This document shows positions 25,445 through 51,497 of a stretch of 64,000 nucleotides of DNA, piece by piece. How positions within the stretch are numbered: position 1 is the first letter of the stretch; every line of letters starts with the position of its first letter. The notes beneath the pieces were generated by a model that saw only the letters and a program-made list of their open reading frames with translations, did not search any database and was not told where the DNA came from. Where the stretch lies: assembly GCA_963621875.1 (NCBI GenBank), contig CAVFFR010000003.1, positions 405 through 64,404 on the forward strand. The letters run 5' to 3'. The DNA comes from Bacteroidaceae bacterium. GTDB taxonomy: Bacteria > Bacillota > Clostridia > TANB77 > CAG-508. A program made the translations under genes and the position numbers.

Positions 25445-25450
25445 AAACAA

Positions 25451-25480
25451 GGTAGATGTAAAAAGCATCTACCTATTATT
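25451..25480 (+). terminator. Hairpin after nrdG (weak T-tract)
   Basis: GGTAGATG (25451-25458) pairs with CATCTACC (25466-25473), followed by TATTATT. Confidence 0.45.
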
Positions 25481-25500
25481 ATAATAAGGAGATTGCAGTG

Positions 25501-31014: not shown

Positions 31015-34000
31015 GTGGATGAATTAGAAAACTTTGATAAAATGAAAATTGGCATCGCATCTGATGAACAGATAAGAGAGTGGTCACATGGAGAAGTAAA
31101 AAAACCAGAAACTATTAACTACAGAACATTAAAGCCAGAAAAAGATGGACTATTTTGTGAAAAAATATTTGGTCCAACAAAAGACTGGGAGTGTCATTGT
31201 GGAAAATATAAAAGAGTAAGATATAAAGGAATAGTTTGTGATAGATGTGGTGTTGAAGTTACAAAAGCTAAAGTTAGGAGAGAGAGAATGGGGCACATAG
31301 AACTTGCTGCCCCAGTAGCTCACATATGGTATTTCAAAGGAATACCAAGCAGAGTTGCTTTAATGCTTGATGTATCACCAAAAGCTTTAGAGAAAGTCAT
31401 ATATTTTGCATCTTACATTGTAACAGACAAAGGAACTACAACATTATCAAAAGCACAAATATTAAACGAAAAAGAGTATACAGAAGCTGTTGAAAAATTT
31501 GGAAGAGATTCTTTTAAAGCAGAAATGGGTGCAGAGCCAATAAGAGATTTACTAGCAGAAATTGATCTAGATAAATTATCTGCAAAACTAAAAAAAGAAC
31601 TTGAAAAAGCAAGTGAGCAAAAAAAGGCTAAATTAGTAAAAAGACTTGATACAGTAGAATCATTTAAATTGTCAAAAAATAGACCTGAATGGATGATAAT
31701 GCAAGTAGTACCAGTTATACCACCAGATTTAAGACCAATGGTACAATTAGATGGTGGAAGATTTGCAACATCAGACTTAAATGATTTATACAGAAGGGTT
31801 ATAAACAGAAATAACAGATTAAAAAGATTATTAGAACTTGGAGCACCAGAAATAATAGTTAGAAACGAGAAAAGAATGCTTCAAGAATCTGTAGATGCTT
31901 TAATAGACAATGGTAGACGTGGAAGACCAGTAACAGGAGCTGGAAACAGACCATTAAAATCTTTATCAGATATGCTTAAGGGAAAACAAGGAAGATTTAG
32001 ACAAAACTTACTAGGAAAACGTGTTGACTATTCAGGACGTTCAGTTATAGTTGTTGGACCAGAGCTAAAAATTTACCAATGTGGTGTTCCAAAGGAAATG
32101 GCAGTAGAGTTATTCAAACCATTTGTAATGAAAGAGTTAGTTGGTCGTGGAATAGCGCACAACATCAAAAATGCAAAAAGAATGGTAGAAAGATTACGTC
32201 CAGAAGTATGGGATATATTAGATGAGGTTATAAAAGATCACCCAGTTCTTCTAAACCGTGCACCTACACTACATAGATTAGGTATACAAGCATTTGAGCC
32301 AGTTTTAGTAGAAGGTAGAGCAATAAAATTACACCCATTAGTTTGTACAGCGTTCAACGCTGACTTCGACGGAGATCAAATGGCTATACATTTACCATTA
32401 TCACCAGAGGCTCAAGCAGAAGCAAGATATTTAATGCTTTCAGAGAACAACCTACTAAAACCACAAGATGGTAAGCCAGTAACAACGCCTACACAAGATA
32501 TGATTTTAGGAAGCTATTACTTAACAATGGATGTTGATGGAGAGCCAGGAGAAGGAACATATTTCTCATCTCCAGAAGAAGCAATAATATCACTTGCAAA
32601 TGGCGATATAACAATGCACTCAAAAATATTTGTTAGAAGATCAAAAATTGTTGATGGAGTAGAAGTACATAAAAAGATAGCAACAACAGTAGGAAGAATA
32701 ATATTCAATACAGGAATTCCACAAGATTTAGGATTTATAGATAGAAGCAAACCAGAAAATGAATTTGAATATGAAATCGGGTTTGTTGTATCAAAGAAAA
32801 ATCTAGGAAAAATAATTGGAAAATGTATTAGTGTACATGGATTAAACAGAACAGCAGAACTTCTAGATTACATCAAAGCAACAGGTTACAAATACTCTAC
32901 ATTAGGAGCTGTAACAGTTTCAGTAGCAGATGTTCAAGTACCACCTGAGAAAAAAGCAATTCTTGCAGATTCTCAAGCACAAGTTGATAATATATTAAAA
33001 CAATACAAACGTGGTTTAATTACTGATGATGAAAGATATAGCCAAGTAATTAAAATATGGGAAAAAGCAACTGATGATGTAAAAGAAGCAATGAAGAAAA
33101 ACTTCGATAAAGAAAACCCAATGTTTATGATGTCTGACTCTGGAGCCAGAGGTAACTTAGACCAGTTAAAACAAATTGCTGGTATGCGTGGACTTATGGC
33201 AAGTACAACAGGTAAAACAGTAGAAATACCAATTAAATCATCATTTAGAGAGGGTCTAGATGCACTAGAGTACTTTATATCAGCCCATGGAGCTCGTAAA
33301 GGACTTTCAGATACAGCTTTAAGAACAGCAGACTCTGGATACCTAACAAGAAGACTTGTTGATGTTTCACAAGATATCATAGTAAGAGAAGATGACTGTG
33401 GAACAACAGAAGGTGTTGAAGTATTTGACATAAAAGACGGAAATCAAATAATAGAAAAAATGCAAGAAAGACTACTTGGAAGATATCCATTATATGATGT
33501 AATAAATCCAAAAACTAAGGAAGTAATAGTTGATACAAACACACTTATTACAGAAGATTTGGCAGATAAAATAGTAGAAGCAGGAATAACAAAAGTTTCT
33601 GTTAGAAGTGTATTTAGATGTAGAACAAAACATGGCGTTTGCTGTAAATGCTATGGTATGGGATTAGCAAGTAGAAAAGAAGTTGATATAGGAGATACAG
33701 TTGGAATAATTGCAGCACAATCAATAGGTGAGCCGGGTACACAGCTTACAATGAGAACTATTCACTCTGGTGGTGTTGCAGGTGTTGCCGACATTACACA
33801 AGGTCTTCCTAGAGTTGAGGAGCTATTTGAAGCTCGTAAACCAAAGGGACTTGCAATAATCACAGAAATAGCAGGAACAGTATCAATTAAAATAGACGAA
33901 AAGAAGAGAAAAGAAGTTATAATTACTTCTAAAGATGATAGCAGAACATATGTAATACCATTTGGCTCTAAGCTAAAAGTAAAAGAAGGAGATGTCCTAG

Positions 34001-34623
34001 AAGCGGGAGATCAAATTACAGAAGGATCTAAAAACCCTGCAGAAGTTCTTGCTATTAATGGACCTAATGGAGTATACGAATATTTAATTCAAGAAGTTCA
34101 AAAAGTTTATAGAAACCAAGGTGTTGATATAAACGACAAACACATTGAAGTTATCGGTAGACAAATGCTTAAAAAGGTAAGAGTTGAAGATAATGGAGAT
34201 ACAGATATGTTTGCAGGTTCTCTAGTAGATATGTACGAATTTGAAGATAAAAACAAAGAAGCTGTAGAAAAAGGTTTAAGACCAGCAGAAGGAAAGAGAG
34301 TATTACTTGGAATTACAAAAGCATCTCTTGCAACAGAAAGCTTCTTATCAGCAGCATCATTCCAAGAGACAACAAGAGTATTAACAGAAGCAGCAATTAA
34401 AGGAAAAACTGACGAATTAATAGGCTTAAAAGAAAATGTAATTATAGGTAAATTAATTCCAGCAGGAACAGGAATGAAAAGATATAAACAAGTTCGCATA
34501 AATACAGATGAAATAGAAAATGTAGAAGAAAATAACGAAATGCTTACAGAATTGGAAAATACAGAAAAAGCTTCAACTGTTGCAAATTCAACAAAAACAT
34601 CTGCAGAAACAATAACTGAATAA
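31015..34623 (+). CDS. rpoC: DNA-directed RNA polymerase subunit beta'
   Basis: 1,202 aa. The Zn-finger is [23 protein letters not shown] and the catalytic motif is [10 protein letters not shown]. Trigger-loop and bridge-helix regions are present. Confidence 0.98.
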
Positions 34624-34631
34624 TAAATAAA

Positions 34632-34668
34632 AAAAGTATGTACTATTTTATATAATACATACTTTTTT
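34632..34668. terminator. Bidirectional terminator between convergent rpoC and the fibre-operon adhesin gene
   Basis: AAAAGTATGTA (34632-34642) pairs with TACATACTTTT (34656-34666), flanked by A-runs and T-runs. Confidence 0.75.
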
Positions 34669-34669: not shown

Positions 34670-36583
34670 TTATTGTAATGTTTGATAAGAATCAAACCAA
34701 GCCCAATTTTCTTGCACTACAAATGGGTCGCTGCTTGAACCAGTTCCAGATAAAATGGTGTCGTTTTTTAAATATACAGTAGGTCTTAAATATCCAGGCC
34801 AACTAGTAGTAGATGGACGAGATAAGAACTCTTTATCATTCAATCTCCAATATTGTCCATTTTTTCCTGAACAGCCAGTCATTGACCATTCGTTTCTATC
34901 TGAATGATACATCCAAGCATTATCTGCAAAGGTAGATTTATTTAGCTGTTGTGATCTAATATTGAATACTTTTGAACTACTACACGATTTTATATAATCT
35001 GAAACAGTAGGAAGTGCTAATTTTGTTACCCAAGCTGCAGATGCACCATCTAATAAGGTATTTTGAGTTCTTTCCCAATTTACTTCTTTTAAAGTACTTG
35101 AATTGCTAGAGATTACAGGTCTTTCAACACCGCCGACATAAAATGTTGCAGTTGCAATATGTCCAGAGTCTGAAAAATCAATATTAAGATCATTGCTGTT
35201 ATCTCCAACTAAACCACTTGATGCCCAACTTACTAATTTTGAATACAAAGTGGTTTTATAAAAGTTACCCTGTTCAGATGAACTATCATTCATATTATAT
35301 CTGTCAGTTAATCCCTCAGAATGAGTTATTTTCACACAATCATTTTCTGGAATATTTATAATTCTCCAAGTTGTAGCAGAACTTTGATCTCTGCTCGTAT
35401 TAGGAAATGATACATAATTATTAACATTTTTACCACTATAGAAATACTTGCTAGCAAAAGGAAGTGAAGTATCCTTACCAGTATCTGCGTTATCAGTCCA
35501 CAAACCATCACTACTACTTAATCCAGTTCCAACAGGAGTTTGCCTTGCTAGTACATATTTTCCAGCTAATGGCCAACGAATTAATACTTCTCTCTCAATA
35601 GTAGATACATTTCCAACTTCATCAGATACAGTGTATGTTACTGCATATCTACCAACTTGAGTAAATGTAGAGGTAGAAGTTATAGCTTGGCTATTTCTTG
35701 TACAGCTGATTCCTACTTCTGAAACTCCACTTTGAGTATCAACTGCACTCATTCCAGTAAGAATGTCTACAGGATTATCTACTCGTGTTACCAATGTTTT
35801 AACGGTTTTCTCAGAACCATTTGCATTATATTCTATACTATCTGCAATTGTAAATTCCGGTGGTGTTTTATCTATTTTTGTTATATCAACTACTAAAGGA
35901 CCGATAATATCACCATCTACATTTTTTGCATATAGTGTAATATTATTTGTATTTTGTTCATAAGTATTTGATGAACTTGTTGACCAAGTTTGTCCTCCAT
36001 CAAAAGAATATTCTGAAAGTTGCAACCCCTCTGTTTTTGGCACAATAGTAAGAGTAACATCATCTTTGGTCCAATTTATTGGATTTCCAGTTACATCTAT
36101 TTCTCCATTTGTTATTGTTACAACAAAACTTTTGGTAAAAGTATATGGATAATTTGCAGAAATTGTTACTGTTACAGTTTCTTTTGCTGGAACATTTGTT
36201 GTAACTAAACGATTAAATATAATATGTAGTGTAGATGAATTTCTAGCACCACCATCTAAAACCAATGATAATTTATTATCTGTAGCGTCAGCTCCGTCAA
36301 CAGAAAAAGTATAATTGCTATTATCTATAGAAATTGTATATTGTATATTTTCTATTGTATAATCTTGATCTATATAGTTATGGAGCGTTAAATCAATATT
36401 TGCAGTATTATTATCATATGGAATTGTCATATCTGTTCCAGTATGGTCGAAGTAAAGGGGAGTAGATGATATAGATAAATTAAGTTGACTTCTTTCCTTA
36501 TATTGTGCTTTAGAAAGTTGCAGAATCCAGATTACACTTATTAATGAAGTTAATATGAAGAAAAAGTATATGTATCTTTTCAT
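34670..36583 (-). CDS. Secreted multidomain adhesin-like protein (last gene of the SipW/TasA-like operon)
   Basis: 637 aa with a hydrophobic N-terminal signal (YIYFFFILTSLISVIWILQLSKAQY). The N-terminal module resembles the small TasA-like proteins upstream. The central Ig-like segment (KTPPEFT...VDILTGMSAVDTQSGVSEVG...GRYAVTYTVSDEVGNVS) is DUF5011-like from memory. The C-terminal ~300 aa are Trp/Ser/Asn-rich. Confidence 0.8.
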   Translation of the reverse strand: MKRYIYFFFILTSLISVIWILQLSKAQYKERSQLNLSISSTPLYFDHTGTDMTIPYDNNTANIDLTLHNYIDQDYTIENIQYTISIDNSNYTFSVDGADATDNKLSLVLDGGARNSSTLHIIFNRLVTTNVPAKETVTVTISANYPYTFTKSFVVTITNGEIDVTGNPINWTKDDVTLTIVPKTEGLQLSEYSFDGGQTWSTSSSNTYEQNTNNITLYAKNVDGDIIGPLVVDITKIDKTPPEFTIADSIEYNANGSEKTVKTLVTRVDNPVDILTGMSAVDTQSGVSEVGISCTRNSQAITSTSTFTQVGRYAVTYTVSDEVGNVSTIEREVLIRWPLAGKYVLARQTPVGTGLSSSDGLWTDNADTGKDTSLPFASKYFYSGKNVNNYVSFPNTSRDQSSATTWRIINIPENDCVKITHSEGLTDRYNMNDSSSEQGNFYKTTLYSKLVSWASSGLVGDNSNDLNIDFSDSGHIATATFYVGGVERPVISSNSSTLKEVNWERTQNTLLDGASAAWVTKLALPTVSDYIKSCSSSKVFNIRSQQLNKSTFADNAWMYHSDRNEWSMTGCSGKNGQYWRLNDKEFLSRPSTTSWPGYLRPTVYLKNDTILSGTGSSSDPFVVQENWAWFDSYQTLQ

Positions 36584-36592
36584 ACCAGCCTC

Positions 36593-37198
36593 CTAATCTA
36601 TTTGCTCTGCATCTACAACAATATTAATTTCATCTGTCAAATTTGCATAAATAACTTCATCTAAACCATTTTGCCATATAACATCTAATCTATATTTATG
36701 TATTTGAGCATTGCTACTCACTTCTATGTAATCAGATATATTATTAGTAAGAGCAATCTCTACAGGATTTGCTTCATCATCTATATTGTACAACTTGTAA
36801 TCTAAAGGCAAGTTAGCAACATTTACAGATTCTATTTTTATTGTATATTTTAATTTTACTTCATTTACATAGGTAGGATTTTCTAAATCCCCTTTAAAAT
36901 TTCTTATCTCAAAAGTTGTGCTTCTTACCGTGTTTGGTATAAATTCTGTTATAGAAGTTTGTTGACCTGATAAATCTAAAACATATCTTGCAGCTCTAGC
37001 TACATCAGCAGAAGCTAAAGTACCTTTAAACTTACCAAATGTAAGACATACTAAAAATGAGGTTGCTACAGCAAGAGAACTTAAGCACGCACTAAATCTA
37101 GCATACAATGGATTGTATACTATTAATTCATTTTTAGAATGTTTTCCACACTTTGGTGCAAAAAATATTACTTTAGTGCTTGCGTGCTTTCCTTTCAT
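36593..37198 (-). CDS. TasA/camelysin-like exported protein (minor paralogue)
   Basis: GAGGGAA precedes ATG 37198 (track start 37210). The signal region SSLAVATSFLVCLTFGKFKGTLASADVARAARYVL parallels the GTLAKY...ARVAKFAY of the 224-aa paralogue. A beta-rich body ends in YRLDVIWQNG. It overlaps the upstream sipW-like gene by about 26 nt. Confidence 0.7.
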   Translation of the reverse strand: MKGKHASTKVIFFAPKCGKHSKNELIVYNPLYARFSACLSSLAVATSFLVCLTFGKFKGTLASADVARAARYVLDLSGQQTSITEFIPNTVRSTTFEIRNFKGDLENPTYVNEVKLKYTIKIESVNVANLPLDYKLYNIDDEANPVEIALTNNISDYIEVSSNAQIHKYRLDVIWQNGLDEVIYANLTDEINIVVDAEQID

Positions 37199-37688
37199 AG
37201 TTTCCCTCATCTTTCTTTTGTTTTTTTGAAGCGTTTAGTAGTAAGAAAAGTAATGCTATAAATATTGTTATTCCAATAGGAGAAGATACAAATTTAACTA
37301 TCTTCCCAGCATAACTAATTTTATAAACTACTTTACCCTGTATTTGAGATAAGCTTACAGGATCATCATCTACATTGTTACTGTCACCTTTTGTATAAAA
37401 TTTATTGTCCTCTATTTTTATAATTCTATGTGTTACTAAAGAATTTTCTGACTGAAATGTTATAATATCATTTTCTTTGTAGCTATCTTCTTTTATTATT
37501 ATTAAGTCATCCACATAAAGCTCTGGAGCCATACTTCCAGATATAACTATTAGTGCCGAATATCCAAAAACTTTAACTAGATTTTGCTTTTTTATAGCTT
37601 TTACATAGAAGATATACGAATTAAGTAATATAAATATTATTGTAAGGAATACTAATATTGCGTTAATAAACTTTTTAGCTATTTCCAT
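37173..37688 (-). CDS. Signal peptidase I, SipW (ER/archaeal) type, copy 2
   Basis: N-terminal TM. The catalytic Ser box is ISGSMAPEL, the His box LVTHRII, and TKGDSNNVDDDP follows. A C-terminal TM is present. Confidence 0.85.
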   Translation of the reverse strand: MEIAKKFINAILVFLTIIFILLNSYIFYVKAIKKQNLVKVFGYSALIVISGSMAPELYVDDLIIIKEDSYKENDIITFQSENSLVTHRIIKIEDNKFYTKGDSNNVDDDPVSLSQIQGKVVYKISYAGKIVKFVSSPIGITIFIALLFLLLNASKKQKKDEGNYERKARKH

Positions 37689-38359
37689 AGACTGTCACCC
37701 TCAAGTTTTGAGTATATATCAAGATATACTGTATATGTAGCTAGTCCGTCTTTTGCAATTTCTAAATCATTATTAAAATCCTCCCATTTCCACTCTAATG
37801 TATAAAGCTCTTGAGAATTTTTTAAAACATAGATATTATCCAATTTCATTTCATCTATTGAAACATAAGAATCTTCATCTCCTATTACATAAACATTGTT
37901 CATTTTTAATTTATATTTTATATTTATGTTTTCGGTATTTTTATCTGTCATACTAAATTTATAATATACTGGCTGACTTGTTGTATTTTGAATAATAAAT
38001 GTGTATGCTCCAGACTGACCTGGCCATATTATTTTTTCTCCATACTTGTTTAAATATTCAAATAAATTAATATTTTCATTTTTGTACCAGTCTTTTCCTT
38101 CACTTGTAACACTAATTACTTTTGTTTCATATGGATTATATATAGCCATATTGAATACGCTTAGTATGTAAGCAACAATTAAAGTTAAAACAATAAATAT
38201 TATAATGACGCTCCAAATTAAGATCTTCCACCTTTTAGTGTACTTTTTGTTTAAAGCATCCATATCTATATATACTTGTTGTTTGTCTTGAACTTTATTG
38301 ATATTAGTGGAAGGATTAATTGGTTTTTGTTTTGCTTTTTGCTTATCTTTAGTAATCAT
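37679..38359 (-). CDS. Membrane-anchored TasA-like protein (possible fibre anchor/accessory)
   Basis: AGGAGA precedes ATG 38359 (the track start 38419 would run through two hairpins). Lys-rich N-terminus and TM WKILIWSVIIIFIVLTLIVAYILSVF. The body shares IIWPGQSGAYTFIIQNTS and YTLEWKWEDF...AKDGLATYTVYLDI with the 224-aa paralogue (LVAPGSEGSIDVILTNKS; ISLGWAWAF...GKAGTATVELQV). Confidence 0.7.
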   Translation of the reverse strand: MITKDKQKAKQKPINPSTNINKVQDKQQVYIDMDALNKKYTKRWKILIWSVIIIFIVLTLIVAYILSVFNMAIYNPYETKVISVTSEGKDWYKNENINLFEYLNKYGEKIIWPGQSGAYTFIIQNTTSQPVYYKFSMTDKNTENINIKYKLKMNNVYVIGDEDSYVSIDEMKLDNIYVLKNSQELYTLEWKWEDFNNDLEIAKDGLATYTVYLDIYSKLEGDSLWK

Positions 38360-38385
38360 AACTATTTCTCCTTCTAAAGTCCCTT

Positions 38386-38437
38386 GCAAAAGAAATACAC
38401 TATTATATTTCTTTTGCAAAGAGCTTTAAGCTCTTTG
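38386..38437 (-). promoter_or_regulatory. Two adjacent perfect hairpins between the major TasA-like gene and the next gene
   Basis: GCAAAAGAAATA (38386-38397) pairs with TATTTCTTTTGC (38406-38417). CAAAGAGC (38417-38424) pairs with GCTCTTTG (38430-38437). Neither hairpin is followed by a U-tract on the transcribed strand. Confidence 0.5.
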
Positions 38438-38447
38438 TATTATGGTA

Positions 38448-39122
38448 TTATACATCTAATTGTGTAACATCACATTTAACTTGTAATTCAACAGTTGCTG
38501 TTCCTGCTTTTCCTAAAGTAGTATCAGTAGTATCAGATTGTGTTGTACCATCACCAGTAAATGCCCAAGCCCATCCTAAAGATATAGTTGATGTAGCATT
38601 TTGAGCTAGTCCTTCAGCCTCACCAACTGCTGTAGCTAATGCATCTAAATCGCCAGTTACAGTAACTTTGTCAGTTGTACCATCATGTAGTGTTACTTGA
38701 GAGTTTGCAGGCAATACACTTGAATAATATTTATCATTGTATTTGTATACGATTGGAATGCTGCTTGTATTTGTTTCTGTTAATGTAAATCCTGCAGATA
38801 TTTTAACTTCACTTTTATTTGTTAATATTACATCTATAGATCCTTCAGAACCAGGAGCTACTAATTTTTTGTTATCATCAGTTAAATTGGCAAGTATACC
38901 TGTATCATTAGTAGTATCAAATAGATTTAAAGTTCTAGTATCTCCTGTACCATCCATTCCTTCTAGAGTATATGCAAATTTTGCAACTCTAGCTGAGTCT
39001 GTACCAGTTACACTTTCAACATATTTTGCAAGTGTTCCAGATATAACACTCATTGTAACAACTGCTAATAAAAGAACTAATAGAGCTAATCTTAAAGTTT
39101 TATTTTTCATTTGTTTATTCAC
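38448..39122 (-). CDS. TasA/camelysin-like exported protein with SipW-type signal peptide (likely major subunit)
   Basis: 224 aa. The signal is KNKTLRLALLVLLLAVVTMSVISGTLAKYVES. The body is beta-rich and Thr/Gly-rich, with PGSEGSIDVILTN and GWAWAF motifs. The gene lies directly downstream of a sipW-type peptidase, as in tapA-sipW-tasA. Confidence 0.75.
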   Translation of the reverse strand: MNKQMKNKTLRLALLVLLLAVVTMSVISGTLAKYVESVTGTDSARVAKFAYTLEGMDGTGDTRTLNLFDTTNDTGILANLTDDNKKLVAPGSEGSIDVILTNKSEVKISAGFTLTETNTSSIPIVYKYNDKYYSSVLPANSQVTLHDGTTDKVTVTGDLDALATAVGEAEGLAQNATSTISLGWAWAFTGDGTTQSDTTDTTLGKAGTATVELQVKCDVTQLDV

Positions 39123-39243
39123 CTCCTCTTATGTAATTTTTTTATTTATTAATTGCTTTATTTTTTAAGCAACAAATAATAACTTAAATTATGTTTGCAA
39201 TATTTTTAGCAATAATTTCTACTGTAATTGCAAAATTTGTATC

Positions 39244-39840
39244 TTATTCTTTTTTATCTTTTTTTAATTCTTGTAATTCTCTTTCTAGTTGTTCTTGTTT
39301 TTCTTTTTGTAATTGAGTATCTTTTCTTCTTTGAACAACATCAGTTATCATAAATAATATAAATGGTATTGAAATAAATATTACTGCGCCTAATGTTGTT
39401 TGTAAAAACATTGCAAAATTTCCAAGTTTTGCAATTCTACCTATGTAAATTCCCTCTACGGAGCTTAAACTCACTAAATTTCTATCTTCTGTATTGTTGT
39501 TATCACCTTTTGTTACAAAAAAATTTTGACCATTTTCCGTTTTGACATCTATAATCCTGTGGGTAATAACAGAAGATCCGCTTCTAAAAGCAATTATATC
39601 TTCCTTTTTTAAATCTTGAGCATTACATTCTTTAATTATTACAATATCTCCTGTCATAATTGTTGGTTCCATAGAACCAGATAGTACAATAAATGGCTTA
39701 TAACCAAAAATGTCTGGTGCTTGGTCTGGATGCATATAAGATTTTACGATTAATGTTGTGTTTACTAACAGTAAAGGTAAAAATATTATTAATATTATTA
39801 TTCCTAATATATTAATTTTTGAATTTTGTTTTTTTTTCAT
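39244..39840 (-). CDS. Signal peptidase I, SipW (ER/archaeal) type, copy 1
   Basis: The start MKKKQNSK at 39840 is preferred over track start 39879. N-terminal TM, LSGSMEPTI Ser box, VITHRII His box, TKGDNNNTEDR, C-terminal TM, and a K/E/Q-rich tail. Confidence 0.85.
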   Translation of the reverse strand: MKKKQNSKINILGIIILIIFLPLLLVNTTLIVKSYMHPDQAPDIFGYKPFIVLSGSMEPTIMTGDIVIIKECNAQDLKKEDIIAFRSGSSVITHRIIDVKTENGQNFFVTKGDNNNTEDRNLVSLSSVEGIYIGRIAKLGNFAMFLQTTLGAVIFISIPFILFMITDVVQRRKDTQLQKEKQEQLERELQELKKDKKE

Positions 39841-39897
39841 GAGTACATCTCCCTTTATTTTATACAATATTATTGTCATTTTATATTACAATTTTAT

Positions 39898-39925
39898 TGT
39901 ATACTTTTTTGTAGAAAAAAGTCAA
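39898..39925 (-). promoter_or_regulatory. Candidate promoter of the SipW/TasA-like operon
   Basis: On the minus strand: TTGACT (39925-39920), a 16-nt spacer, then TATACA (39903-39898). Confidence 0.35.
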
Positions 39926-40103: not shown

Positions 40104-40830
40104 ATGCTTGTTTTTAATAAAAGAAGAATAGTTTTTTTAACAATGAGTATTATAACTCCAATAATGATTTTTACAATTCAAACTACTTCTCAAGATTTAA
40201 AGAAAAATAAAGCATCAATAGAAACAATGTCAGTTCCAGTAACATCAAAAATAATAGTATTAGATGCAGGACATCGGAGGAGAAGATGGAGGAGCTGTGA
40301 GTAATAATGGGGTAAGTGAGGCGTCTATTAATTTAAAAATAACTCTAAAACTTCAAAATTTATTAGAACAAAGTGGTGCAACAGTAATACTTACAAGGTC
40401 TGACGAAAATGCAATATATGATTTAAATAAAAAAACTTTAAGAGAAAAGAAAAACTCAGATATAAAAAACAGAGTAAAAATAGGAAATTCTGCAAGTGCA
40501 GATGTTTTTGTAAGCATACATCTAAACAAAATTCCACAAAGTCAATACAGTGGGTGGCAGACTTTTTACAAAAAGGATAATGAAGATAGCAAAAAATTAG
40601 CTATCTGTTTGCAAAATAATCTAAATGAGGCAATGCAAAAAGAAAACAAAAGAGTACCCCTTCAAATTGATAATGTTTATATAATAAAATATGTAGAAAT
40701 TCCAACATGTATTGTAGAGTGTGGATTTTTATCAAATCCAGATGAAGAAAAAAATTTACAAGATGATGTATATCAAGACAAACTTGCCTGGGGAATTTAT
40801 AATGGAATTATGAGTTACTTTTCTGAATAA
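40104..40830 (+). pseudogene. cwlD: CwlD-like N-acetylmuramoyl-L-alanine amidase (Amidase_3), broken by a +1 frameshift
   Basis: Frame 1 gives a TM and then ...SKIIVLDAGH, followed by RRRRWRSCE*. Frame 2 continues GGEDGGAVSNNGVSEASINLKI...FVSIHLN...VECGFLSN. Removing the single C at 40275 (CAT-C-GGA) restores the conserved DAGHGGEDGGA motif. Confidence 0.8.
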
Positions 40831-41471: not shown

Positions 41472-44400
41472 ATGTGTAAAACATATACCAAGGAGTGGAT
41501 TTTTTTGAGCGAAAAAAAGAAATTAAATATAAAAGGAGCGATTTTAGATAAAACGCAACTAGAAGACTATTTAAACAAAATTGCTTCTGACCACATATTA
41601 ACAGAAAAATCTAGTAAAGAAACAAATCCTTTACCAAGATTAAAGGAGAACTTTTTTGTTATAAAAGAAGTGTATAAATTGCTAAATGAACATATAAAGC
41701 AATGTATTCCAATACATCCAGCAGGAGAATGGATTTTAGATAATTTATATATTATAGAAGAAGCTGTAAAAAGTATATCTAAAGAACTTACTCTAAAAAA
41801 ATATACGAATTTTTTAGGTCTTGCTAATGGAAGATATAAAGGTTTTGCCAGAGTTTATGTGTTAGCAACAGAGATGGTTGCTTATACTGACGGAAAAATA
41901 AATTCTGAAAACTTAGAAGAAATGTTAAAAGCATACCAAACTAAGAAAACACTTAGTATGAATGAGATATGGAGTATAGGCTTGTTTATCCAAATAGCAT
42001 TAATTGAAAATATAAGAGAAATATGTGAAACAATTTATATGTCACAACTTCAAAAATATAAAGTAGAAAATATTTTAGCCAAATTTTTTGATGAAGAAAA
42101 AAAGAAAAATAGAGTGCTTCAATTAAACAAAATATCGCAAATAAAAACTAATCAAATGAAAAACGCATTTGTAGAATATATGTCATATAAACTAAAAAAA
42201 TATGGAAGCCAAGCTTACCCGTATCTAAATATATTAGAAGAAGAAGTGGCAAAAACAGGCTCAGATATTTCTGAGATAGTAAAAAAAGAACATTTTGATA
42301 TTGCAGTAAAAAAAGTATCAATAGGAAACAATATTATATCTTTAAAAACAATGTCAAGAATAAATTTTTTAGAAATTTTTGAAAGAATAAATAGAGTGGA
42401 AGACATACTAAAACAAGATCCAGTTGGTCAATATCAATTGATGGATGGAGATACAAAAACATATTACAGAAATGCAATAGCAGAAATATCTAAAAAGACT
42501 AAAATATCTGAAATATATATAGCAAAGAAGTGCTTAGAATTAGCACAAAAAGAAGAAAAAAACGAAAAGAAAAAACATATTGGCTATTATCTAATAGCAG
42601 ATGGAAAAGAAGAACTTTTAAATAATTTACTAGACAAAAAGATAAAAATAAAAACAAATTATGAAAGAACAAAAACTTATATAAAATCAATATGGGGGAG
42701 CAGTATAGCAGTAAGCTTGCTATTTTGTATCAATATGTATTTTATATTAAATAATCAATGGTGGTTAAAAATATTATTGTCAGCTATATTATTTTGTGTG
42801 ATACTCGTACCAATAGAAAATATAATGTCAAAAATTGCTCAATACATTCTTAGCAAAATTGTAAAGCCAAAACTAATTCCAAAATTAGATTTCCAAAATG
42901 GAATTCCAGAAAAATATAAAACAATGGTAGTAGTTCCAACAATAATAAAAAGCAAGGAAAAAGTTAGAGAATTAATGAAAAAACTCGAAGTTTATTACAT
43001 TGCAAATAAAAGTGAAAATTTATATTTTACTCTTTTAGGCGATTGCAGTTCTGGAAGTAAAGAAATCGAAAATTTTGATGAAGAAGTTATAAGAGCAGGG
43101 ATAGAAGAAATAGAAAAATTAAATAAAAAATATGGAGAGAAATTTAATTTTATTTATAGAAAAAGAAAATGGAATGCAAATGAAGAATGTTATATGGGTT
43201 GGGAAAGAAAAAGAGGTTTGCTAAATCAATTTAATGAGTATTTGTTAGGAAATATAGCAAATCCGTTTAGAATAAGCACTTTTAAAGATATTGAAGAATT
43301 TAAAAATACACAATATATAATTACACTAGATTCTGATACAGATTTAACATTAAATTCGGCTTTAAAGCTAGTTGGAGCCATGGCTCATATATTAAATAAA
43401 CCAATACTAAATAATAACAAAGATTTAGTAATATCTGGACACGCAATAATGCAACCAAGAGTCGGAATAGGTTTGCTAGAAAGTAGAAAAAGTATATTTA
43501 CTCAAATTTATGCAGGAGAAGGAGGAACAGATTCTTATACAAATGTCATATCAAACACATATCAAGACAATTTTGATGAAGGAATATTTACAGGAAAAGG
43601 AATATATGATGTAAATATTTTTTCAAAAGTATTGGAAGGGGAAATAAGAGAAAATGCAGTATTAAGTCACGATTTATTAGAAGGAAATTATTTAAGATGT
43701 GGTCTATTATCAGATGTAATGTTAATGGATGGATATCCAACAAATTATTTAAGTTTTAGAACGAGATTATATAGATGGATAAGAGGAGATTTTCAGATAC
43801 TTCCGTGGCTAAAAAGGACAATAGTAAACAAAAAAGGAGAAAGAAAAAATAATCCGTTAGGATTACTAAGTAAATACAAAATATTTAGCAATATAGTAAG
43901 AAGCAAAGTGGAATTTTTTGCGTTAATGACAATTATATATTCTTTGCTACTTGCAAAAATACTAAAATTAGAATTAATCAACTTTGCACTAATAGGGTTA
44001 ATAGCAATATTAATTCCTACTGTAATAGATATTGTAAATGTTGCTATAAGCAAAAAAGATAGGATAATAAAAACTAAAAAATTTGTAAACACAATAGATG
44101 GGCTTAGAGCTAGTTTACTTAGAGGAGTTTTAGATTTTCTATTAATACCTGATAAAGCTTATATAACAACAAAAGCAGAAATAAAAACTATATATAGGAT
44201 GACAAAAACGAAGAAGTATTTATTAGAATGGACAACTTCGGAAGAAGCGGAAAGAACAGCAAAAACTGATTTAATATCTTATTATAAAGAGATGAGAGCA
44301 AACTCAATATTGGCTATATTGGGACTTATAGCATATTTTTGCATAACAATCACAAAGCCAACATTTTTAGTGGAATTAATAATATTAATTTTAAGCCTAT

Positions 44401-47400
44401 TATGGTTGATAACTCCAGCGATAATGTGCCAAATAAGCAAGAAAAATAAACAAGTATTAGCGATAGAGAAAATAAACAAGCAAGACAAAGAATACATTAT
44501 GGATGTGGGCTATAAAACTTGGCTATATTTTAAAGAAAACTTAATTCAAAGAGGGAACTATTTGCCTCCAGATAATTATCAAGAAGACAGAAAACCAAAA
44601 ATAGTAATGAGAACATCGCCAACCAATATAGGACTTGCCCTTCTTGCTGTAATGTCAAGCTATGACTTAAAATACGAAGATTTAGAAAATACAATAGAAC
44701 TTTTATATAAAATGATAAATACAATAAGTAATCTAACAAAATGGAATGGACATTTATATAATTGGTATAACATAGAAACCTTAGAACCACTTATACCAAG
44801 ATATATTTCATCAGTTGATAGTGGAAACTTTATAGGGTATCTTTATGTATTAAAACAATTTTTATTAAAGAAAAAAGAAGAAATAGAAAAAAACGAAACA
44901 ATATCAAAAATAAATGTAATGCTAGAAAATATAAAAAACATAATAAAACAAACAGACTTTGAAAAATTATATAACCACGAGAACAGACTATTTTCAATAG
45001 GATTTAATGTAGAAGATAATCAATTAACAGATTCTTACTATGATTTATTAGCATCTGAAGCAAGGCAAACAAGTCTAATAGCAATAGCTAAAAAAGATAT
45101 TTCAGAAAAACATTGGTACAACTTAAGCAGAACTTTGACAACATTGAATGGATATAAAGGCTTGGTTTCTTGGTCTGGAACATCATTTGAATATTTGATG
45201 CCAACAGTAAACATTCCGCAATACTCAGGTAGTATATTAGATGAATCTTGTAAATTTATGATAATGAGTCAGTTGGAATATGCAAAAAAATTAGGAATAC
45301 CATGGGGAATATCAGAAGCGGCATTCAATTTAAGAGATCTAAATAATAACTACCAATACAAAGCATTTGGAATTCCTTGGCTGGGACTAAAAAGAGGACT
45401 CTCTGACGAAATTGTGGTATCAACATATGGTTCAGTACTTGCAATAAATGAGTTACCAAAAGAAGTTTTGAATAATCTAAAAATATTAGAACAAGAAAAA
45501 ATGTATGATAAATATGGATTTTATGAAGCAATAGACTTTACACCTGGCAGAACAAAAAATGGATATACACCAGTAAAAACATATATGGCACACCACCAAG
45601 GTTTAATACTATTATCAATAAATAATTTGATAAATAAAAATATAATACAGAAAAGATTTATGAATAATCCAGAGATTCAAGCTGTAAATATTTTATTGCA
45701 AGAAAAAATGCCAGAAAATATGATAATAACAAAAGAAGAAAAAGAAAAGGTAGATAAAATTAAATATCAAGATTACGAAAATTATACGCAAAGGCAATAC
45801 AGTAAAATAAACGAAAATTTAAATATATCTAATGTAATAGCAAATGACAAATATACAATAATAATGGATCAATTTGGAAATGGATATAGCAAATACAAAA
45901 ATTTGCAAGTAAATAGATACAAAGAAACTGATGAAGCTCAACAGGGAATAATGTTCTATATAAAGAATATTAGAAACAAAAATATTTGGACAAATACGTA
46001 TTCAAAAGTCGGAAAGAAACCAGACAAATATAATTTAGTATTCGCACCAGAAATGGATAAAACAATAAGGGTGGACGAAAGCATTGAAACAATAACAAAA
46101 ACGATAGTAGACACGGATGAACCTGTGGAAGTAAGAAGGTTAGAATTAAAAAATACAGGAGCTATAGAAGAAATATTGGAGATTACAGCATTTATAGAGC
46201 CCATAATATCTGATAGAATGCAAGACTACGCACACAAAGCATTTAATAATTTATTCTTGTCATATGAGTATATAGACAGTACAAATACAATTTTAATAAA
46301 GAGAAAAGCACATACAGCTTCAGAACAAGATGTCTATATGGCAGTAAATTTATTTGCACAAAACAACACAATAGGAGAAGTTGAATATGAAATAGACAAA
46401 GAAAAATTTTTCGGAAGATGCAATTATAAAATTCCAAGGGAAGTAGAAAATTCAATACCATTTAGCAGAAAAATTGGTTATACAACAGATCCAATTGTTG
46501 CAATGAAACAAACTATAAATATAAAACCAGAAGAAACGACATATATAGACTTGATAATATCTGTGGGAGAAGACAAAGAAACTGTATTAAAGAATGTTGT
46601 TAGATTTATGAATAATGAAAACACAAAAAGAACTTTTGAACTTTTAAAAGCTAAGAGTGAAGCGGAAAATAGATATTTAGGCTTAAAGGGAAAAGATATA
46701 GAGATATATCAACAAATTTTGTCATATATATTATTTGCACCAAAAGTAGATATAAAGAAGAATCAATACAATGAAAACACTCAATATCCAGTATCAAATT
46801 TGTGGAAATATGGAATATCAGGAGATTTACCAATATTACTGGTTAAAATAAAAGATATTAATGATATAGATATAATCAAAGAAGTATTAAGTGCATATGA
46901 ATTTTTTAGAGTTAAAAATATAAATATTGATTTGGTAATATTAAATGAAGAAAAAGAAAGCTACGAAAATTATGTAAGAGATGCTATACAAACAGCGGTA
47001 CTAAACAAAAACCTGGCATATTTATTAAATATTCCAGGGGGGATATTTTGTTTAGAAAATGTGGAAAGCAAAGATAAGAAACTATTGGAAATGCGAGCAA
47101 ACTTAATAGTAAATGCAAATTACAGTTCACTGGAAATTCAAATGAAGGAAATAGAACATAAAATATTAGACAATGTAAAAGAGGTTGCTTACGATTCAAA
47201 TAAAGAAATAAATTTTGAAAGCGAAATAGACACGGAAATGATATTAGACGAAAAAGAGTTAAAATATTTTAATGAATTTGGTGGGTTTGCCAAAAACGGA
47301 AAAGAATATCAAATCAAATTAAGGTCAAATAGCACCTTACCAACTGTTTGGAGTCATATCATAACAAACGGTAAATTTGGAACATTAACGACAGAAAATA

Positions 47401-49184
47401 TGGGTGGATACACTTGGAATAAAAATAGTAAACTAAATAGAATAACAGCGTGGTCAAATGATCAAGTAACAGATACTCCTTCAGAAATAATATATATAAA
47501 AGATAAGGACACAAATAAGAAGTGGTCAGTTGGATATAATCCATTGCATGACGAAAATGAATATTATGCTATTTATGGATTTGGTTATGCAAAGTATATT
47601 CATACTTCTTCAAAAATAAAGCAAGCAGTAGATATATTTGTGCCGAAAAATGATAATGTTAAAATAAATTTATTAACACTAGAAAACAAAAATCCTAAAA
47701 GAAAAAATCTAAAATTGATATATTATATAAAACCTGTGTTAGGAGAAGATGAAATAAAAACTAACAAATATATATATACAAACTTTAACACAGCATCAAA
47801 TACAATATTTTTAAAAAACTTAATGAATGAGAAAAAAGAAGACTTGACTTTTGTAACATCTAGTGAAAAAATAAAATCTTATACAGGTAGCAAAAGTTCC
47901 TTTTTAAAAAATTCTGGAATAAGTTCTCCTGCTGGATTAGATCAGATAGAGTTAAGTAGAGAAAACTCTTTTGGAAAAAATAGTATAATGGCAATAATGA
48001 TAGATGTAACAATAGAAGCTTTTTCGACTAAAGAAATATCATTTGTACTAGGAAGTGCAGAAAACAAAGAAGAAGCTTTGGATATTGCATATAAATATTC
48101 AAATATAGGAAATTGCAAAAATGAATATGAAACTATAAAGAAATATTGGAATGACTTGGTAAATAGATTGCAAGTTAATACACCAATGGAATCTACAAAC
48201 ATTTTATTAAATGGGTGGCTGATATATCAAACAATTTGTGCAAGGTTATGTGGAAGAACAGGATTTTACCAATCGGGTGGAGCATATGGATTTAGAGATC
48301 AGCTTCAGGATACTATGGCTGCAAAATATATTGAGCCAGAAATGGCAAGGAAGCAGATATTAAAAAGTGCAAGACATCAATTCATAGAAGGTGATGTTGA
48401 ACATTGGTGGCACGAGGAGACAAGCAGGGGAATAAGAACAAGAATTTCAGATGACTTGTTATGGCTAGCATATGTAACAGAAGACTATATAAGCTTTACC
48501 AATGATTATCAAATTTTAGATGAAGAAATAACCTACAAAGAAGGCAAAATTTTAGCACCAGACGAAAATGAAAGATATGATTTATATAAAGATTCTCAAA
48601 CAAAAGAAAGCTTATATATGCATTGCATAAAAGCAATAGAAAAGTCACTAAACTTTGGTAAGCACGGACTTCCTAAAATAGGAACAGGAGACTGGAATGA
48701 TGGGTTTAGCAATGTGGGTAGTAAAGGAACAGGAGAAAGTGTATGGCTAGGATTTTTTTTATACGAAGTATTAAAAAAGTTTATACCAATATGCAAGTAT
48801 AAAAATGATAACGCAAGAGCAGAAAAATATATGGAAATAATGGAAAAACTAAAAAGAACATTAAATACAGAAGGCTGGGACAGCAGATGGTATAAAAGAG
48901 CATTTACAGATAATGAAGAAACATTAGGAAGCTTGCAAAACGAAGAATGTAAAATAGACAATATATCTCAAAGCTGGGCAACAATTTCTGAAGCGGGAGA
49001 AAATGACAAAAAATATATAGCCATGGAAAGTTTGGAGAACCACTTAATAGACAAAGAAATAGGAATAATAAAATTACTAGATCCACCGTTTGAAAAAAGT
49101 AAATTAGAACCAGGATATATAAAATCATATCTACCAGGGACAAGAGAAAATGGAGGACAATACACACATGAGTGTTGTTGTTAG
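41472..49184 (+). CDS. Cyclic beta-1,2-glucan synthase-like giant protein (GT84-like transferase plus GH94 phosphorylase), 5' portion, truncated by insertion
   Basis: The start could be the TTG at 41505, 8 nt after GGAGTGG. GT motifs are ITLDSDTDL, AIMQPRV, LSHDLLEG and RLYRWIRGDFQILPW, with multiple TMs. PPDNYQEDRKPKIVMRTSPTNIGLALL is also present. GH94 motifs are GFRDQLQD, HWWHEETSRGIRTRISDDLLWL and GTGDWNDG. The ORF ends ...RENGGQYTH followed by the foreign ECCC*. Confidence 0.85.
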   Translation: MCKTYTKEWIFLSEKKKLNIKGAILDKTQLEDYLNKIASDHILTEKSSKETNPLPRLKENFFVIKEVYKLLNEHIKQCIPIHPAGEWILDNLYIIEEAVKSISKELTLKKYTNFLGLANGRYKGFARVYVLATEMVAYTDGKINSENLEEMLKAYQTKKTLSMNEIWSIGLFIQIALIENIREICETIYMSQLQKYKVENILAKFFDEEKKKNRVLQLNKISQIKTNQMKNAFVEYMSYKLKKYGSQAYPYLNILEEEVAKTGSDISEIVKKEHFDIAVKKVSIGNNIISLKTMSRINFLEIFERINRVEDILKQDPVGQYQLMDGDTKTYYRNAIAEISKKTKISEIYIAKKCLELAQKEEKNEKKKHIGYYLIADGKEELLNNLLDKKIKIKTNYERTKTYIKSIWGSSIAVSLLFCINMYFILNNQWWLKILLSAILFCVILVPIENIMSKIAQYILSKIVKPKLIPKLDFQNGIPEKYKTMVVVPTIIKSKEKVRELMKKLEVYYIANKSENLYFTLLGDCSSGSKEIENFDEEVIRAGIEEIEKLNKKYGEKFNFIYRKRKWNANEECYMGWERKRGLLNQFNEYLLGNIANPFRISTFKDIEEFKNTQYIITLDSDTDLTLNSALKLVGAMAHILNKPILNNNKDLVISGHAIMQPRVGIGLLESRKSIFTQIYAGEGGTDSYTNVISNTYQDNFDEGIFTGKGIYDVNIFSKVLEGEIRENAVLSHDLLEGNYLRCGLLSDVMLMDGYPTNYLSFRTRLYRWIRGDFQILPWLKRTIVNKKGERKNNPLGLLSKYKIFSNIVRSKVEFFALMTIIYSLLLAKILKLELINFALIGLIAILIPTVIDIVNVAISKKDRIIKTKKFVNTIDGLRASLLRGVLDFLLIPDKAYITTKAEIKTIYRMTKTKKYLLEWTTSEEAERTAKTDLISYYKEMRANSILAILGLIAYFCITITKPTFLVELIILILSLLWLITPAIMCQISKKNKQVLAIEKINKQDKEYIMDVGYKTWLYFKENLIQRGNYLPPDNYQEDRKPKIVMRTSPTNIGLALLAVMSSYDLKYEDLENTIELLYKMINTISNLTKWNGHLYNWYNIETLEPLIPRYISSVDSGNFIGYLYVLKQFLLKKKEEIEKNETISKINVMLENIKNIIKQTDFEKLYNHENRLFSIGFNVEDNQLTDSYYDLLASEARQTSLIAIAKKDISEKHWYNLSRTLTTLNGYKGLVSWSGTSFEYLMPTVNIPQYSGSILDESCKFMIMSQLEYAKKLGIPWGISEAAFNLRDLNNNYQYKAFGIPWLGLKRGLSDEIVVSTYGSVLAINELPKEVLNNLKILEQEKMYDKYGFYEAIDFTPGRTKNGYTPVKTYMAHHQGLILLSINNLINKNIIQKRFMNNPEIQAVNILLQEKMPENMIITKEEKEKVDKIKYQDYENYTQRQYSKINENLNISNVIANDKYTIIMDQFGNGYSKYKNLQVNRYKETDEAQQGIMFYIKNIRNKNIWTNTYSKVGKKPDKYNLVFAPEMDKTIRVDESIETITKTIVDTDEPVEVRRLELKNTGAIEEILEITAFIEPIISDRMQDYAHKAFNNLFLSYEYIDSTNTILIKRKAHTASEQDVYMAVNLFAQNNTIGEVEYEIDKEKFFGRCNYKIPREVENSIPFSRKIGYTTDPIVAMKQTINIKPEETTYIDLIISVGEDKETVLKNVVRFMNNENTKRTFELLKAKSEAENRYLGLKGKDIEIYQQILSYILFAPKVDIKKNQYNENTQYPVSNLWKYGISGDLPILLVKIKDINDIDIIKEVLSAYEFFRVKNINIDLVILNEEKESYENYVRDAIQTAVLNKNLAYLLNIPGGIFCLENVESKDKKLLEMRANLIVNANYSSLEIQMKEIEHKILDNVKEVAYDSNKEINFESEIDTEMILDEKELKYFNEFGGFAKNGKEYQIKLRSNSTLPTVWSHIITNGKFGTLTTENMGGYTWNKNSKLNRITAWSNDQVTDTPSEIIYIKDKDTNKKWSVGYNPLHDENEYYAIYGFGYAKYIHTSSKIKQAVDIFVPKNDNVKINLLTLENKNPKRKNLKLIYYIKPVLGEDEIKTNKYIYTNFNTASNTIFLKNLMNEKKEDLTFVTSSEKIKSYTGSKSSFLKNSGISSPAGLDQIELSRENSFGKNSIMAIMIDVTIEAFSTKEISFVLGSAENKEEALDIAYKYSNIGNCKNEYETIKKYWNDLVNRLQVNTPMESTNILLNGWLIYQTICARLCGRTGFYQSGGAYGFRDQLQDTMAAKYIEPEMARKQILKSARHQFIEGDVEHWWHEETSRGIRTRISDDLLWLAYVTEDYISFTNDYQILDEEITYKEGKILAPDENERYDLYKDSQTKESLYMHCIKAIEKSLNFGKHGLPKIGTGDWNDGFSNVGSKGTGESVWLGFFLYEVLKKFIPICKYKNDNARAEKYMEIMEKLKRTLNTEGWDSRWYKRAFTDNEETLGSLQNEECKIDNISQSWATISEAGENDKKYIAMESLENHLIDKEIGIIKLLDPPFEKSKLEPGYIKSYLPGTRENGGQYTHECCC

Positions 49185-51481: not shown

Positions 51482-51497
51482 AAAAAAGGAGTAGAAT

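Follow-up and report, generated by a model that had tools for sequence, protein, structure and literature searches.

The 64,000-nucleotide stretch of clostridial DNA analysed here (contig CAVFFR010000003.1, hereafter the window) carries on its minus strand a cassette of six co-directional genes (34670–39879) that probably encodes a cell-surface protein fibre composed of TasA-like β-sandwich subunits, which would be matured by two SipW-like signal peptidases. According to the list of open reading frames (ORFs), the genes follow each other in the order sipW-1 (39244–39879), A (38448–39122), B (37679–38419), sipW-2 (37173–37688), C (36593–37210) and the gene for a protein of 637 amino acids (aa; 34670–36583). 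This order and all ORF coordinates agree with an earlier description made from the letters of the window (the sequence-only reading), which had proposed a more elaborate version of the tapA-sipW-tasA system of Bacillus subtilis. We refer to the 224-aa protein, the putative major fibre subunit, as A, to the 246/226-aa protein, a putative membrane anchor or basal subunit, as B, and to the 205/201-aa protein, a putative minor or adaptor subunit, as C, while D designates the position of the 637-aa protein, which is a putative distal, displayed component. Both sipW genes code for signal peptidases I of the endoplasmic reticulum (ER)/archaeal type, and we call the upstream peptidase P1 (sipW-1 class) and the internal one P2 (sipW-2 class).

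Two old clades of SipW-type signal peptidases

Both peptidases scored above the cutoff of 51.85 bits of the archaeal/ER-type signal peptidase I model TIGR02228 (103.4 bits for sipW-1 and 82.6 bits for sipW-2), in line with their earlier identification as SipW-type enzymes. The cutoff of 190 bits of the Bacillus SipW equivalog NF046067 was not reached by either of them (118.2 and 79.9 bits, respectively); judged by these model scores, they are SipW-type peptidases without being orthologues of Bacillus SipW. The ER-type boxes SGSM, HRI and GD(N/S)NN were confirmed in both proteins: in sipW-1, which has one transmembrane helix (TM) at each terminus and a cytoplasmic tail rich in K/E, they were found at S67–M70 (SGSM), H107 (HRI) and 125 (GDNNN), in sipW-2 at 50 (SGSM), 87 (HRI) and 101 (GDSNN). 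By their box content, both paralogues appear to be catalytically intact.

When the peptidases of 36 loci were compared, P1 and P2 formed two cleanly separated groups. The nearest neighbour of a peptidase belonged to its own class in 72 of 72 cases, and a neighbour-joining tree contained one clade with all 36 P1 and no P2 sequences. Mean identity was 43% among P1 and 37% among P2 sequences, compared to 27% between P1 and P2 of the same locus, and the Ser (SM) and His (HR) boxes were kept in the consensus sequences of both classes. This clean separation indicates that the second peptidase is an ancient, maintained feature and not the product of a recent duplication. The existence of two old clades makes the earlier suggestion of two substrate classes plausible at the level of the sequences.

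The small proteins as paralogues of a large family without a name

The relationship among the small proteins was analysed in 54 related loci, which were collected in part with a 29-sequence subset alignment of the A family and in which ORFs were called, searched with iterated hidden Markov models (HMMs), aligned by gene position and compared with hhalign. Iterated HMMs seeded by A, B or C converged on a common set of about 175–183 ORFs. The hhalign probability was 99.6% for class A versus B (194 columns) and for class A versus C (172 columns), 97.7% for B versus C (170 columns) and 96.3% for class C versus the small proteins at position D (161 columns); as single sequences compared with A1, B reached 90.8% and C 85%. 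These profile comparisons identify A, B and C as paralogues, and the mutual homology proposed in the sequence-only reading is thereby borne out. The body of A is a β-sandwich with the motifs APGxxG, SEV, WAWAF and DTTLG. The motif sharing between A and B that had been noticed before proved to be a family-wide property, as APGxxG, WxW and DTxLG are common to both and conserved across the family. The body of C is homologous to that of A and more diverged, lacking APGT and WxW.

All 91 database homologues of A are unnamed or annotated as 'hypothetical protein', and none of them has a Pfam domain. Searching 1.84 billion cluster representatives (50% identity) with an A-family profile yielded 8,970 representatives at E≤0.001, among them 5,244 at E≤1e-10 and 1,997 at E≤1e-30, and to judge from these profile hits the A family is a very large family that has neither a name nor a model. 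In ten members, the N-terminus weakly matched the haloarchaeal family DUF7266. When A, B and C were scanned with Pfam and NCBIfam, no credible match was obtained, Peptidase_M73/TasA included. In particular, none of the six cassette proteins matched Peptidase_M73 (PF12389) at E≤1 and none of 71 A-family members did so at E≤0.1; neither A nor C had a hit in NCBIfam, and no SipW-cognate signal-peptide model was matched by B or the 637-aa protein. Sequence searches of the PDB with single proteins and with profiles gave matches at chance level only, such as RhoGDI at E 0.08, and no TasA chain was found with the A1 profile at E≤10.

N-terminal classes and the predicted fold of A

The N-termini divide the subunits into classes that are conserved in about 30 species per class. 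Members of class A have a short basic n-region and a hydrophobic helix, followed by ISGT(F/L)AKY and, after about seven residues, by D(S/T)ARVAK(F/W). In A of the window, the signal peptide ends with ISGTLA↓KY (the arrow marks the predicted cleavage site, here after Ala32), and DSARVAKFAY occupies residues 42–51, with D42, A44, R45, V46, A47 and F49 being invariant in the A2 set. In class C, the helix is followed by GLYA(R/K)Y and then by DSARVAKF; C of the window has LTFG↓KF at the end of its signal peptide and then ADVARAARYVL, which corresponds to DSARVAKFAY of A. A likeness between the N-termini of A and C had been pointed out in the sequence-only reading; the similarity is real, but the register was off, and the correct co-linear match is TLAKY-x7-DSARVAKFAY with TFGKF-x7-ADVARAARYVL. 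Members of the position-D class carry xA(K/R)Y after the helix and lack ARVAKF, and the protein of the window has LSKAQY. Class B differs from the others by a longer, Lys-rich cytoplasmic tail and a (G/S)RL-type sequence behind the helix; it has neither A(K/R)Y nor ARVAKF and retains the APGT, WxW and DT motifs of A. B of the window contains one TM (about residues 66–90) and an extracellular domain homologous to A, and the TM, which is predicted to stay uncleaved, is kept in nearly all species. The presence of a membrane helix in combination with the absence of cleavage and donor motifs fits the role as anchor that had been assigned to B.

In an hhalign comparison, ISGTLAKY of A was aligned with GGGTWAAF of TasA, a weak match that is nevertheless the sole sequence similarity to TasA. 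The mature TasA chain begins at A28, directly after GTWA (checked against 8aur), and the signal peptides of B. subtilis TasA and of A both end with G-T-x-A↓x-aromatic. As the G-T-x-A↓x-(F/Y) ending is invariant throughout the A family and SipW-type peptidases are encoded next to it, the signal peptide of A was classed as being of the SipW type. By analogy with GTWA↓AF of TasA, we predict that cleavage occurs after Ala or Gly and before (K/R/Q)(Y/F). In A and C, such cleavage would leave ARVAKF close to the newly formed N-terminus, which is where TasA has its donor strand.

An AlphaFold2 model of A, calculated from a 71-sequence alignment, had a mean confidence score (pLDDT) of 84.5. With this model, Foldseek detected the TasA fibre 8aur_A as the sole significant match in the PDB (E 4e-5, probability 1.0), followed by TLP-1b, TLP-1a and then type-1 pilus subunits, all non-TasA matches having E >0.01. 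TLP-1 fibrils are formed by donor-strand exchange as well (PMC11494351). B and C would inherit the TasA-like fold through their homology to A. The designation 'TasA/camelysin-like' in the sequence-only reading thus stands at the level of the fold, by the match of the A model to 8aur_A, and falls at the level of the sequence family, where no match was found. A metalloprotease activity of the camelysin type was considered and rejected because the cassette proteins contain no HExxH motif.

Distribution and variation of the cassette

The order peptidase, subunit, subunit(s), peptidase, subunit (S-T-T-S-T) was present in 37 of the 54 related loci, the outcome of a distribution analysis that had been suggested together with the initial description, and was often extended by one more subunit or by a large protein. 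Position D usually holds a small protein from the same subunit family that carries an A(K/R)Y motif. Recurrence in so many loci and species indicates that the gene arrangement did not arise by chance. The named hosts include uncultured Clostridium, Ruminococcaceae, Oscillospiraceae, Lachnospiraceae, Faecalimonas, Faecousia and Saccharofermentans as well as uncultured Bacilli, and the samples came from human, sheep, roe deer, yak, horse and apparently rabbit ('Lapin'). A single locus record that carries the cassette (NZ_QUMD01000022.1, Clostridium sp. OF09-36) is not labelled as uncultured or as a metagenome-assembled genome. Several of its subunit genes appear to be fragmented (T131+T91, T78+T111), possibly as a result of frameshifts, pseudogene formation or sequencing errors; if the genes are intact, Clostridium sp. 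OF09-36 could serve as an experimental handle.

In some lineages, the subunit at position B or D is expanded to 700–1000 aa and still matches the subunit HMM (L040:6724–9750, L045:9796–12813, a 900-aa ORF in L034 and L015:12092–14233), indicating that the anchor and tip positions tolerate large insertions or stalks. Compared to the closest relative of the window (L005:9989–10660), A is the most diverged cassette protein with 82% identity, while the other five proteins are 89–93% identical. At larger distances, A is among the best-conserved proteins of the cassette. The divergence of A from the closest relative may be the result of diversifying pressure, as A would be an exposed major subunit.

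Gene C is intact in the window but is split in three species of a sister clade whose A proteins share 66–73% identity with A of the window (L001:9914–10520, L006:11957–12563 and L011:11902–12517). The split occurs at an identical 15-nt site, ATAGAACGGATTTGT, and the second half lies in the +1 frame. Reading GAA (C)GGA at this site would restore a protein that is co-linear with C of the window, and CGG codons are rare in low-GC Firmicutes. Purifying selection acts on both halves, with ratios of nonsynonymous to synonymous substitution rates (dN/dS) of 0.10–0.33 at dS 0.5–0.74, and the 348-nt downstream half contains no stop codon or indel. By these sequence features, the split gene is a candidate for programmed +1 frameshifting or, alternatively, for separate translation of the two halves.

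Architecture of the 637-aa protein

The AlphaFold2 model of the 637-aa protein (pLDDT 84.0) comprises a signal helix ending with LSKA↓QY, a disordered segment (21–41), which is the sole long stretch of low confidence, an N-terminal β-sandwich (about 45–160), two immunoglobulin (Ig)-like β-sandwich repeats (about 162–336) and an α/β C-terminal domain of about 300 residues (about 338–637). Foldseek searches of the PDB and BFVD with this model retrieved only generic tandem Ig-like stalks (hydin, RTX adhesin repeats, GhpA and antigen I/II), and the repeats have homologues in the repeats of a 'GBS Bsp-like repeat-containing protein'. The C-terminal domain had no sequence match in Pfam or the PDB, and nothing was found when the isolated N- and C-terminal parts were compared with Pfam. 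Residues 161–637 recur in four other proteins (P0112–P0115) behind a different N-terminal module with Listeria-Bacteroides (Flg_new) repeats, indicating that residues 1–160 behave as a separate, exchangeable module. With stalk repeats and a C-terminal domain of this kind, the earlier description as a large adhesin is unproven; as a conclusion from the architecture, 'adhesin' is a reasonable guess.

A model for fibre assembly and its alternatives

Taken as a fibre system, the cassette would function as follows. The subunits would be exported by Sec and matured by the two dedicated peptidases, whose cleavage at xxA↓(K/R/Q)Y would free an N-terminal strand, DSARVAKF in A and C, that could enter the open sheet of a neighbouring subunit by donor-strand exchange. 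A, with donor strand and acceptor body, would be the repeating shaft subunit. B offers an acceptor body without cleavage site or donor strand and, by keeping its membrane helix, could act as membrane-proximal anchor and terminator, while C, with a donor strand and a diverged body, may be an adaptor or initiator. The 637-aa protein, with its cleavable signal, free N-terminal stretch, Ig-like stalk and globular head, would be displayed at the distal end. P1 probably serves the bulk subunit A during elongation and P2 the set of B, C and D for initiation and anchoring, a division of labour that is suggested by the position of P1 always beside A and of P2 always abutting C. Both the ribosome-binding site (RBS) of A, the strongest of the cassette, and its fast divergence from the closest relative fit an abundant and exposed subunit. 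The cassette is also self-contained: it has a terminator, and its gene order is retained where the genomic surroundings differ. Our confidence in the specific subunit roles is lower than in the fibre as such.

Several points weigh against this model. We infer donor-strand exchange, the polarity of the fibre and the roles of all subunits from sequences and predicted structures, while the pairing of peptidases with substrates and the retention of the signal helix in B are predictions. No link at the sequence level was found to TasA/Peptidase_M73, TapA or TIGR04088-type models, although HMM searches with Peptidase_M73/TasA and models of the latter type, which the sequence-only reading had named as a check, were performed; hhalign of A1 with TasA gave a probability of 1.8%, confined to the end of the signal peptide. 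The structural match of the subunits was obtained with the model of A, and superposition of this model on TasA gave a TM-score of only 0.37 and a root-mean-square deviation of 9 Å. As the modelled protein included the signal peptide and the flexible N-terminus, the low TM-score leaves the TasA-fibre-like predicted fold of A supported, but not tight. The N-terminus of the 637-aa protein (residues 6–175) has a weak similarity to the small position-D proteins (hhalign 60%, 162 columns), and the interruption of gene C by a frameshift in the sister clade suggests that C may be dispensable or regulated.

The generic nature of β-sandwich folds, the E-values above 0.01 of the non-TasA matches in the PDB and the low TM-score for TasA would also agree with secreted or tethered β-sandwich proteins that do not polymerise and perhaps form a small hetero-complex held by B, with the peptidases acting as enzymes of export and maturation. 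We consider this rather unlikely, since the top three structural matches of A are all donor-strand fibres and since A and C have a highly conserved segment of 8–10 residues after the predicted cleavage site, which resembles a donor strand and would be odd in a monomer. Furthermore, the classes with donor and acceptor, with acceptor only, and with donor and diverged body mirror the composition of heteropolymeric pili.

The fibre model can also be extended to a more far-reaching version, in which cleavage of the signal peptide is itself the assembly step. Subunits would wait at the membrane, tethered by their uncleaved signal peptides, until a dedicated SipW paralogue cuts and releases the membrane-adjacent donor strand of the growing fibre, which would then pass to the next subunit in waiting, so that growth proceeds from the base. 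P2 would initiate with D and C, P1 would elongate with A, and B, uncleavable and without a donor strand, would stop growth and anchor the fibre. The dose of the adaptor might be tuned in some lineages by programmed +1 frameshifting in gene C. That the cassette represents such a distinct and widespread pilus pathway of gut Firmicutes is a speculative proposal, to which we assign a low probability.

Comparison with known fibre systems

TasA fibres of B. subtilis assemble by donor-strand exchange (PMC9674648), and their formation is nucleated by TapA (PMC10151520). The tapA-sipW-tasA operon (8AUR) and the cassette have in common an ER-type signal peptidase encoded within the operon and the β-sandwich fold of the subunit, and the arrangement B-sipW-2-C mirrors tapA-sipW-tasA, with an accessory protein upstream and a subunit downstream of the peptidase. 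In contrast to B. subtilis with its one peptidase and one subunit class plus TapA, the cassette has two peptidases, which belong to two old clades and both score below the cutoff for Bacillus SipW, and its subunits fall into three or four classes, with B being TM-anchored and devoid of a cleavage motif; homology to TasA/Peptidase_M73 is not detectable at the sequence level. In agreement with the sequence-only reading, the cassette is a conserved and more elaborate relative of tapA-sipW-tasA, for which no name or model exists.

In Clostridium perfringens, the operon sipW-bsaA-bsaB-bsaC encodes, besides SipW, two paralogues that remotely resemble TasA and a third protein of large size, and BsaA oligomers are anchored in the membrane and were modelled as donor-strand exchanged (PMC7395162, PMC11580942). 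Iterative HMM searches identified 2,172 BsaA/TasA-like proteins, 632 of which are members of IPR022121, and operons with several paralogues, signal peptidases and sortases were noted and heteropolymers suggested (PMC11580942). The combination of SipW, TasA-like paralogues and a large protein in a clostridial operon is shared with the cassette, whereas C. perfringens has a single peptidase and the A/B/C family lacks a Pfam match. The large proteins differ as well: BsaC contains a VWA domain and requires type IV pilus genes, while the 637-aa protein has Ig-like repeats and another domain.

As these closest characterised systems form matrix fibres (PMC9674648, PMC7395162, PMC11580942), the cassette might alternatively produce a released scaffold of the biofilm matrix, with shed fibres, B as a TapA-like nucleator and the 637-aa protein acting independently like BsaC, which is also a large co-operonic protein without a demonstrated role in the fibre. 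The identical order of B-sipW-2-C and tapA-sipW-tasA and the weakness of the link between the N-terminus of the 637-aa protein and the subunit family are in agreement with such a scaffold. TapA has a cleaved signal peptide, unlike B with its predicted uncleaved TM in nearly all species. In addition, the usual occupation of position D by a small family member with an A(K/R)Y motif suggests that the protein at this position belongs to the polymer, and the occurrence of residues 161–637 behind other display modules makes residues 1–160 look like a module for incorporation. We therefore judge a shed matrix scaffold to be quite unlikely and favour the anchored surface fibre.

A comparable subunit logic is found in the tafi fimbriae of Haloarcula hispanica, heteropolymeric thin fibres with proposed roles for TafC, which has an extra globular domain, as the tip, TafE as the adaptor, TafA as the shaft subunit and TafF as the anchor, whose major subunit requires the dedicated S24/S26 signal peptidase TafD for processing and for which donor-strand exchange was proposed from AlphaFold models (PMC11821415). 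However, the tafi system is archaeal, has one peptidase per cluster and uses the twin-arginine translocation (Tat) pathway with twin-arginine signals, and no sequence homology to the cassette has been established. Since there is no RR in the first 40 residues of any of the six cassette proteins, an assignment to Tat fimbriae was rejected. The chaperone-usher pili (Fim/Pap) and the type V pili (FimA/Mfa of Bacteroidia) follow a similar logic of tip, adaptor, shaft and anchor or terminator, and in type V pili strand exchange depends on an N-terminal segment being removed by proteolysis. Fim and Pap subunits were among the weaker structural matches of the A model. In contrast to the cassette, these pili are made by outer-membrane machines of Gram-negative bacteria, and the chaperone, usher and lipoprotein precursors are absent here. 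Sortase-dependent pili were likewise rejected, because no LPXTG-like motif was present at the C-terminus of any cassette protein; the single match, LPFAS, lies inside the 637-aa protein (residue 374), and the two peptidases, three subunits and the 637-aa protein, flanked by rpoC and an Amidase_3 gene, include no sortase.

Operon structure and genomic neighbourhood

The DNA of the window is low in GC (25–35%), and the cassette is flanked by the convergent rpoC gene (31015–34623, plus strand) and a divergent Amidase_3 gene (40264–40830, plus strand). The likely start of sipW-1 is the ATG at 39840, which is preceded by AAGGGAG and yields a protein of 198 aa. A has 224 aa when read from a GTG, but its likely start is the ATG at 39110, preceded by AAGAGGAGG (an RBS of the AGGAGG type), and the resulting length of 220 aa is that of the window's own A in the database (P0001). 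B comprises 246 aa from a TTG or 226 aa from an ATG, and C 205 aa or, from the second Met, 201 aa. As the sequence-only reading had correctly stated, the genes around sipW-2 overlap, by 10 nt between B and sipW-2 and by 26 nt between sipW-2 and the start of the 201-aa form of C (38 nt to the first ATG). These overlaps suggest that sipW-2 may be coupled in translation to both B and C.

A bidirectional intrinsic terminator (34630–34668, both strands) with a 17-bp stem between an A-run and a U-run is common to the cassette and the convergent rpoC; the hairpin folds at –16 kcal/mol (z = –6.8), and none of 200 shuffled sequences equalled it. With this hairpin closing both rpoC and the cassette, the six genes look like a single operon. 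A candidate promoter upstream of sipW-1 (39896–39925, minus strand; TTGACT-18-TACAAT) matches the consensus at 10 of 12 positions, and it is a consensus match only, as scans for promoter and terminator consensus sites found them to be no more numerous than in shuffled sequence. The intergenic region between sipW-1 and A had no significant RNA structure (z = –1.3).

The sequence-only reading had proposed that the cassette is an acquired island, located where rpsL would normally follow rpoC. The rpsL expectation is inapplicable here, because rpoBC lies outside the canonical ribosomal-protein context, with glyA upstream. The GC content of the cassette (28–33%) is equal to that of the flanks, no integrase flanks the cassette, and the closest relative has the same Amidase_3, DUF5684 and giant-gene neighbours. 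In the sister clade, the cassette lies between a prsA-like rotamase gene and ahpC and directly after nrdD-nrdG, from which it is separated only by the prsA-like gene. In the window, nrdD-nrdG (22756–26742; L001:3226–7144 in the sister clade) is about 10 kb away from the cassette, which is inverted, and glyA-rpoB-rpoC lies in between. The shared proximity to nrdD-nrdG points to a local rearrangement of a long-resident cassette that placed rpoBC beside it, and not to a recent acquisition. Given the GC content and the neighbourhood comparison, the acquired island was rejected as unsupported.

The adjoining, divergently transcribed Amidase_3 gene could hint at a spore-associated appendage or coat system, and TasA was first described as the spore-coat-associated CotN and is named 'Spore coat-associated protein N' in PDB entry 5of1. 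The amidase neighbour is not conserved, given that the sister clade has prsA and ahpC at the borders of the cassette, no sporulation gene or promoter evidence was found, and the cassette occurs in many lineages. A function in spores thus seems very improbable, compared to a fibre on the cell surface.

A probable integrated mobilisable element (49520–61757) is separated from the cassette by a giant gene. The element contains genes for a Mob_Pre relaxase (52904–54151) and a large serine recombinase (60036–61757) as well as for a Fic/DOC protein, UPF0158, an HTH_36 protein, a DUF6076 protein and ORFs without Pfam matches. The intervening ORF of 2570 aa (41472–49184) has glucoamylase-like, GH94 supersandwich and GH94 catalytic domains and by this domain content resembles a cyclic β-1,2-glucan synthase. 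It ends at position 340 of the 420 positions of the GH94 catalytic model, which may point to a truncation or frameshift of the gene at about 49184. Two further giant, adjacent ORFs are located at 11578–16605 (1675 aa; the surface-protein domains SdrD_B and DUF11) and 16619–22192 (1857 aa; no Pfam match at E≤1e-5).

Implications for gut Firmicutes

The general idea of SipW-dependent, TasA-like fibres is already known, and TasA-like donor-strand fibres with a dedicated SipW have been described from only a few model organisms. What appears to be new is a sequence family without model or name, a conserved two-peptidase architecture with two old clades, a clear structure of donor and acceptor classes and the breadth of occurrence in gut Firmicutes; in a limited literature search, we did not find a paper on a two-SipW cassette or these features. 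The family merits Pfam and NCBIfam models, by which thousands of 'hypothetical proteins' could be named. The split between the peptidase clades, together with donor-plus-acceptor, acceptor-only and donor-only-like subunit classes, leads to direct hypotheses on the ordering, termination and anchoring of heteropolymeric fibres that are built without chaperones. With its stereotyped layout of five to six genes, the cassette is found across gut Clostridia and Bacilli of humans and animals, most of them uncultured, and it probably represents a widespread surface-fibre system. If the proteins indeed form fibres, the cassette would constitute a common, overlooked route to surface appendages of gut Firmicutes for adhesion, aggregation or biofilm formation that involves neither sortase, usher nor type IV machinery.

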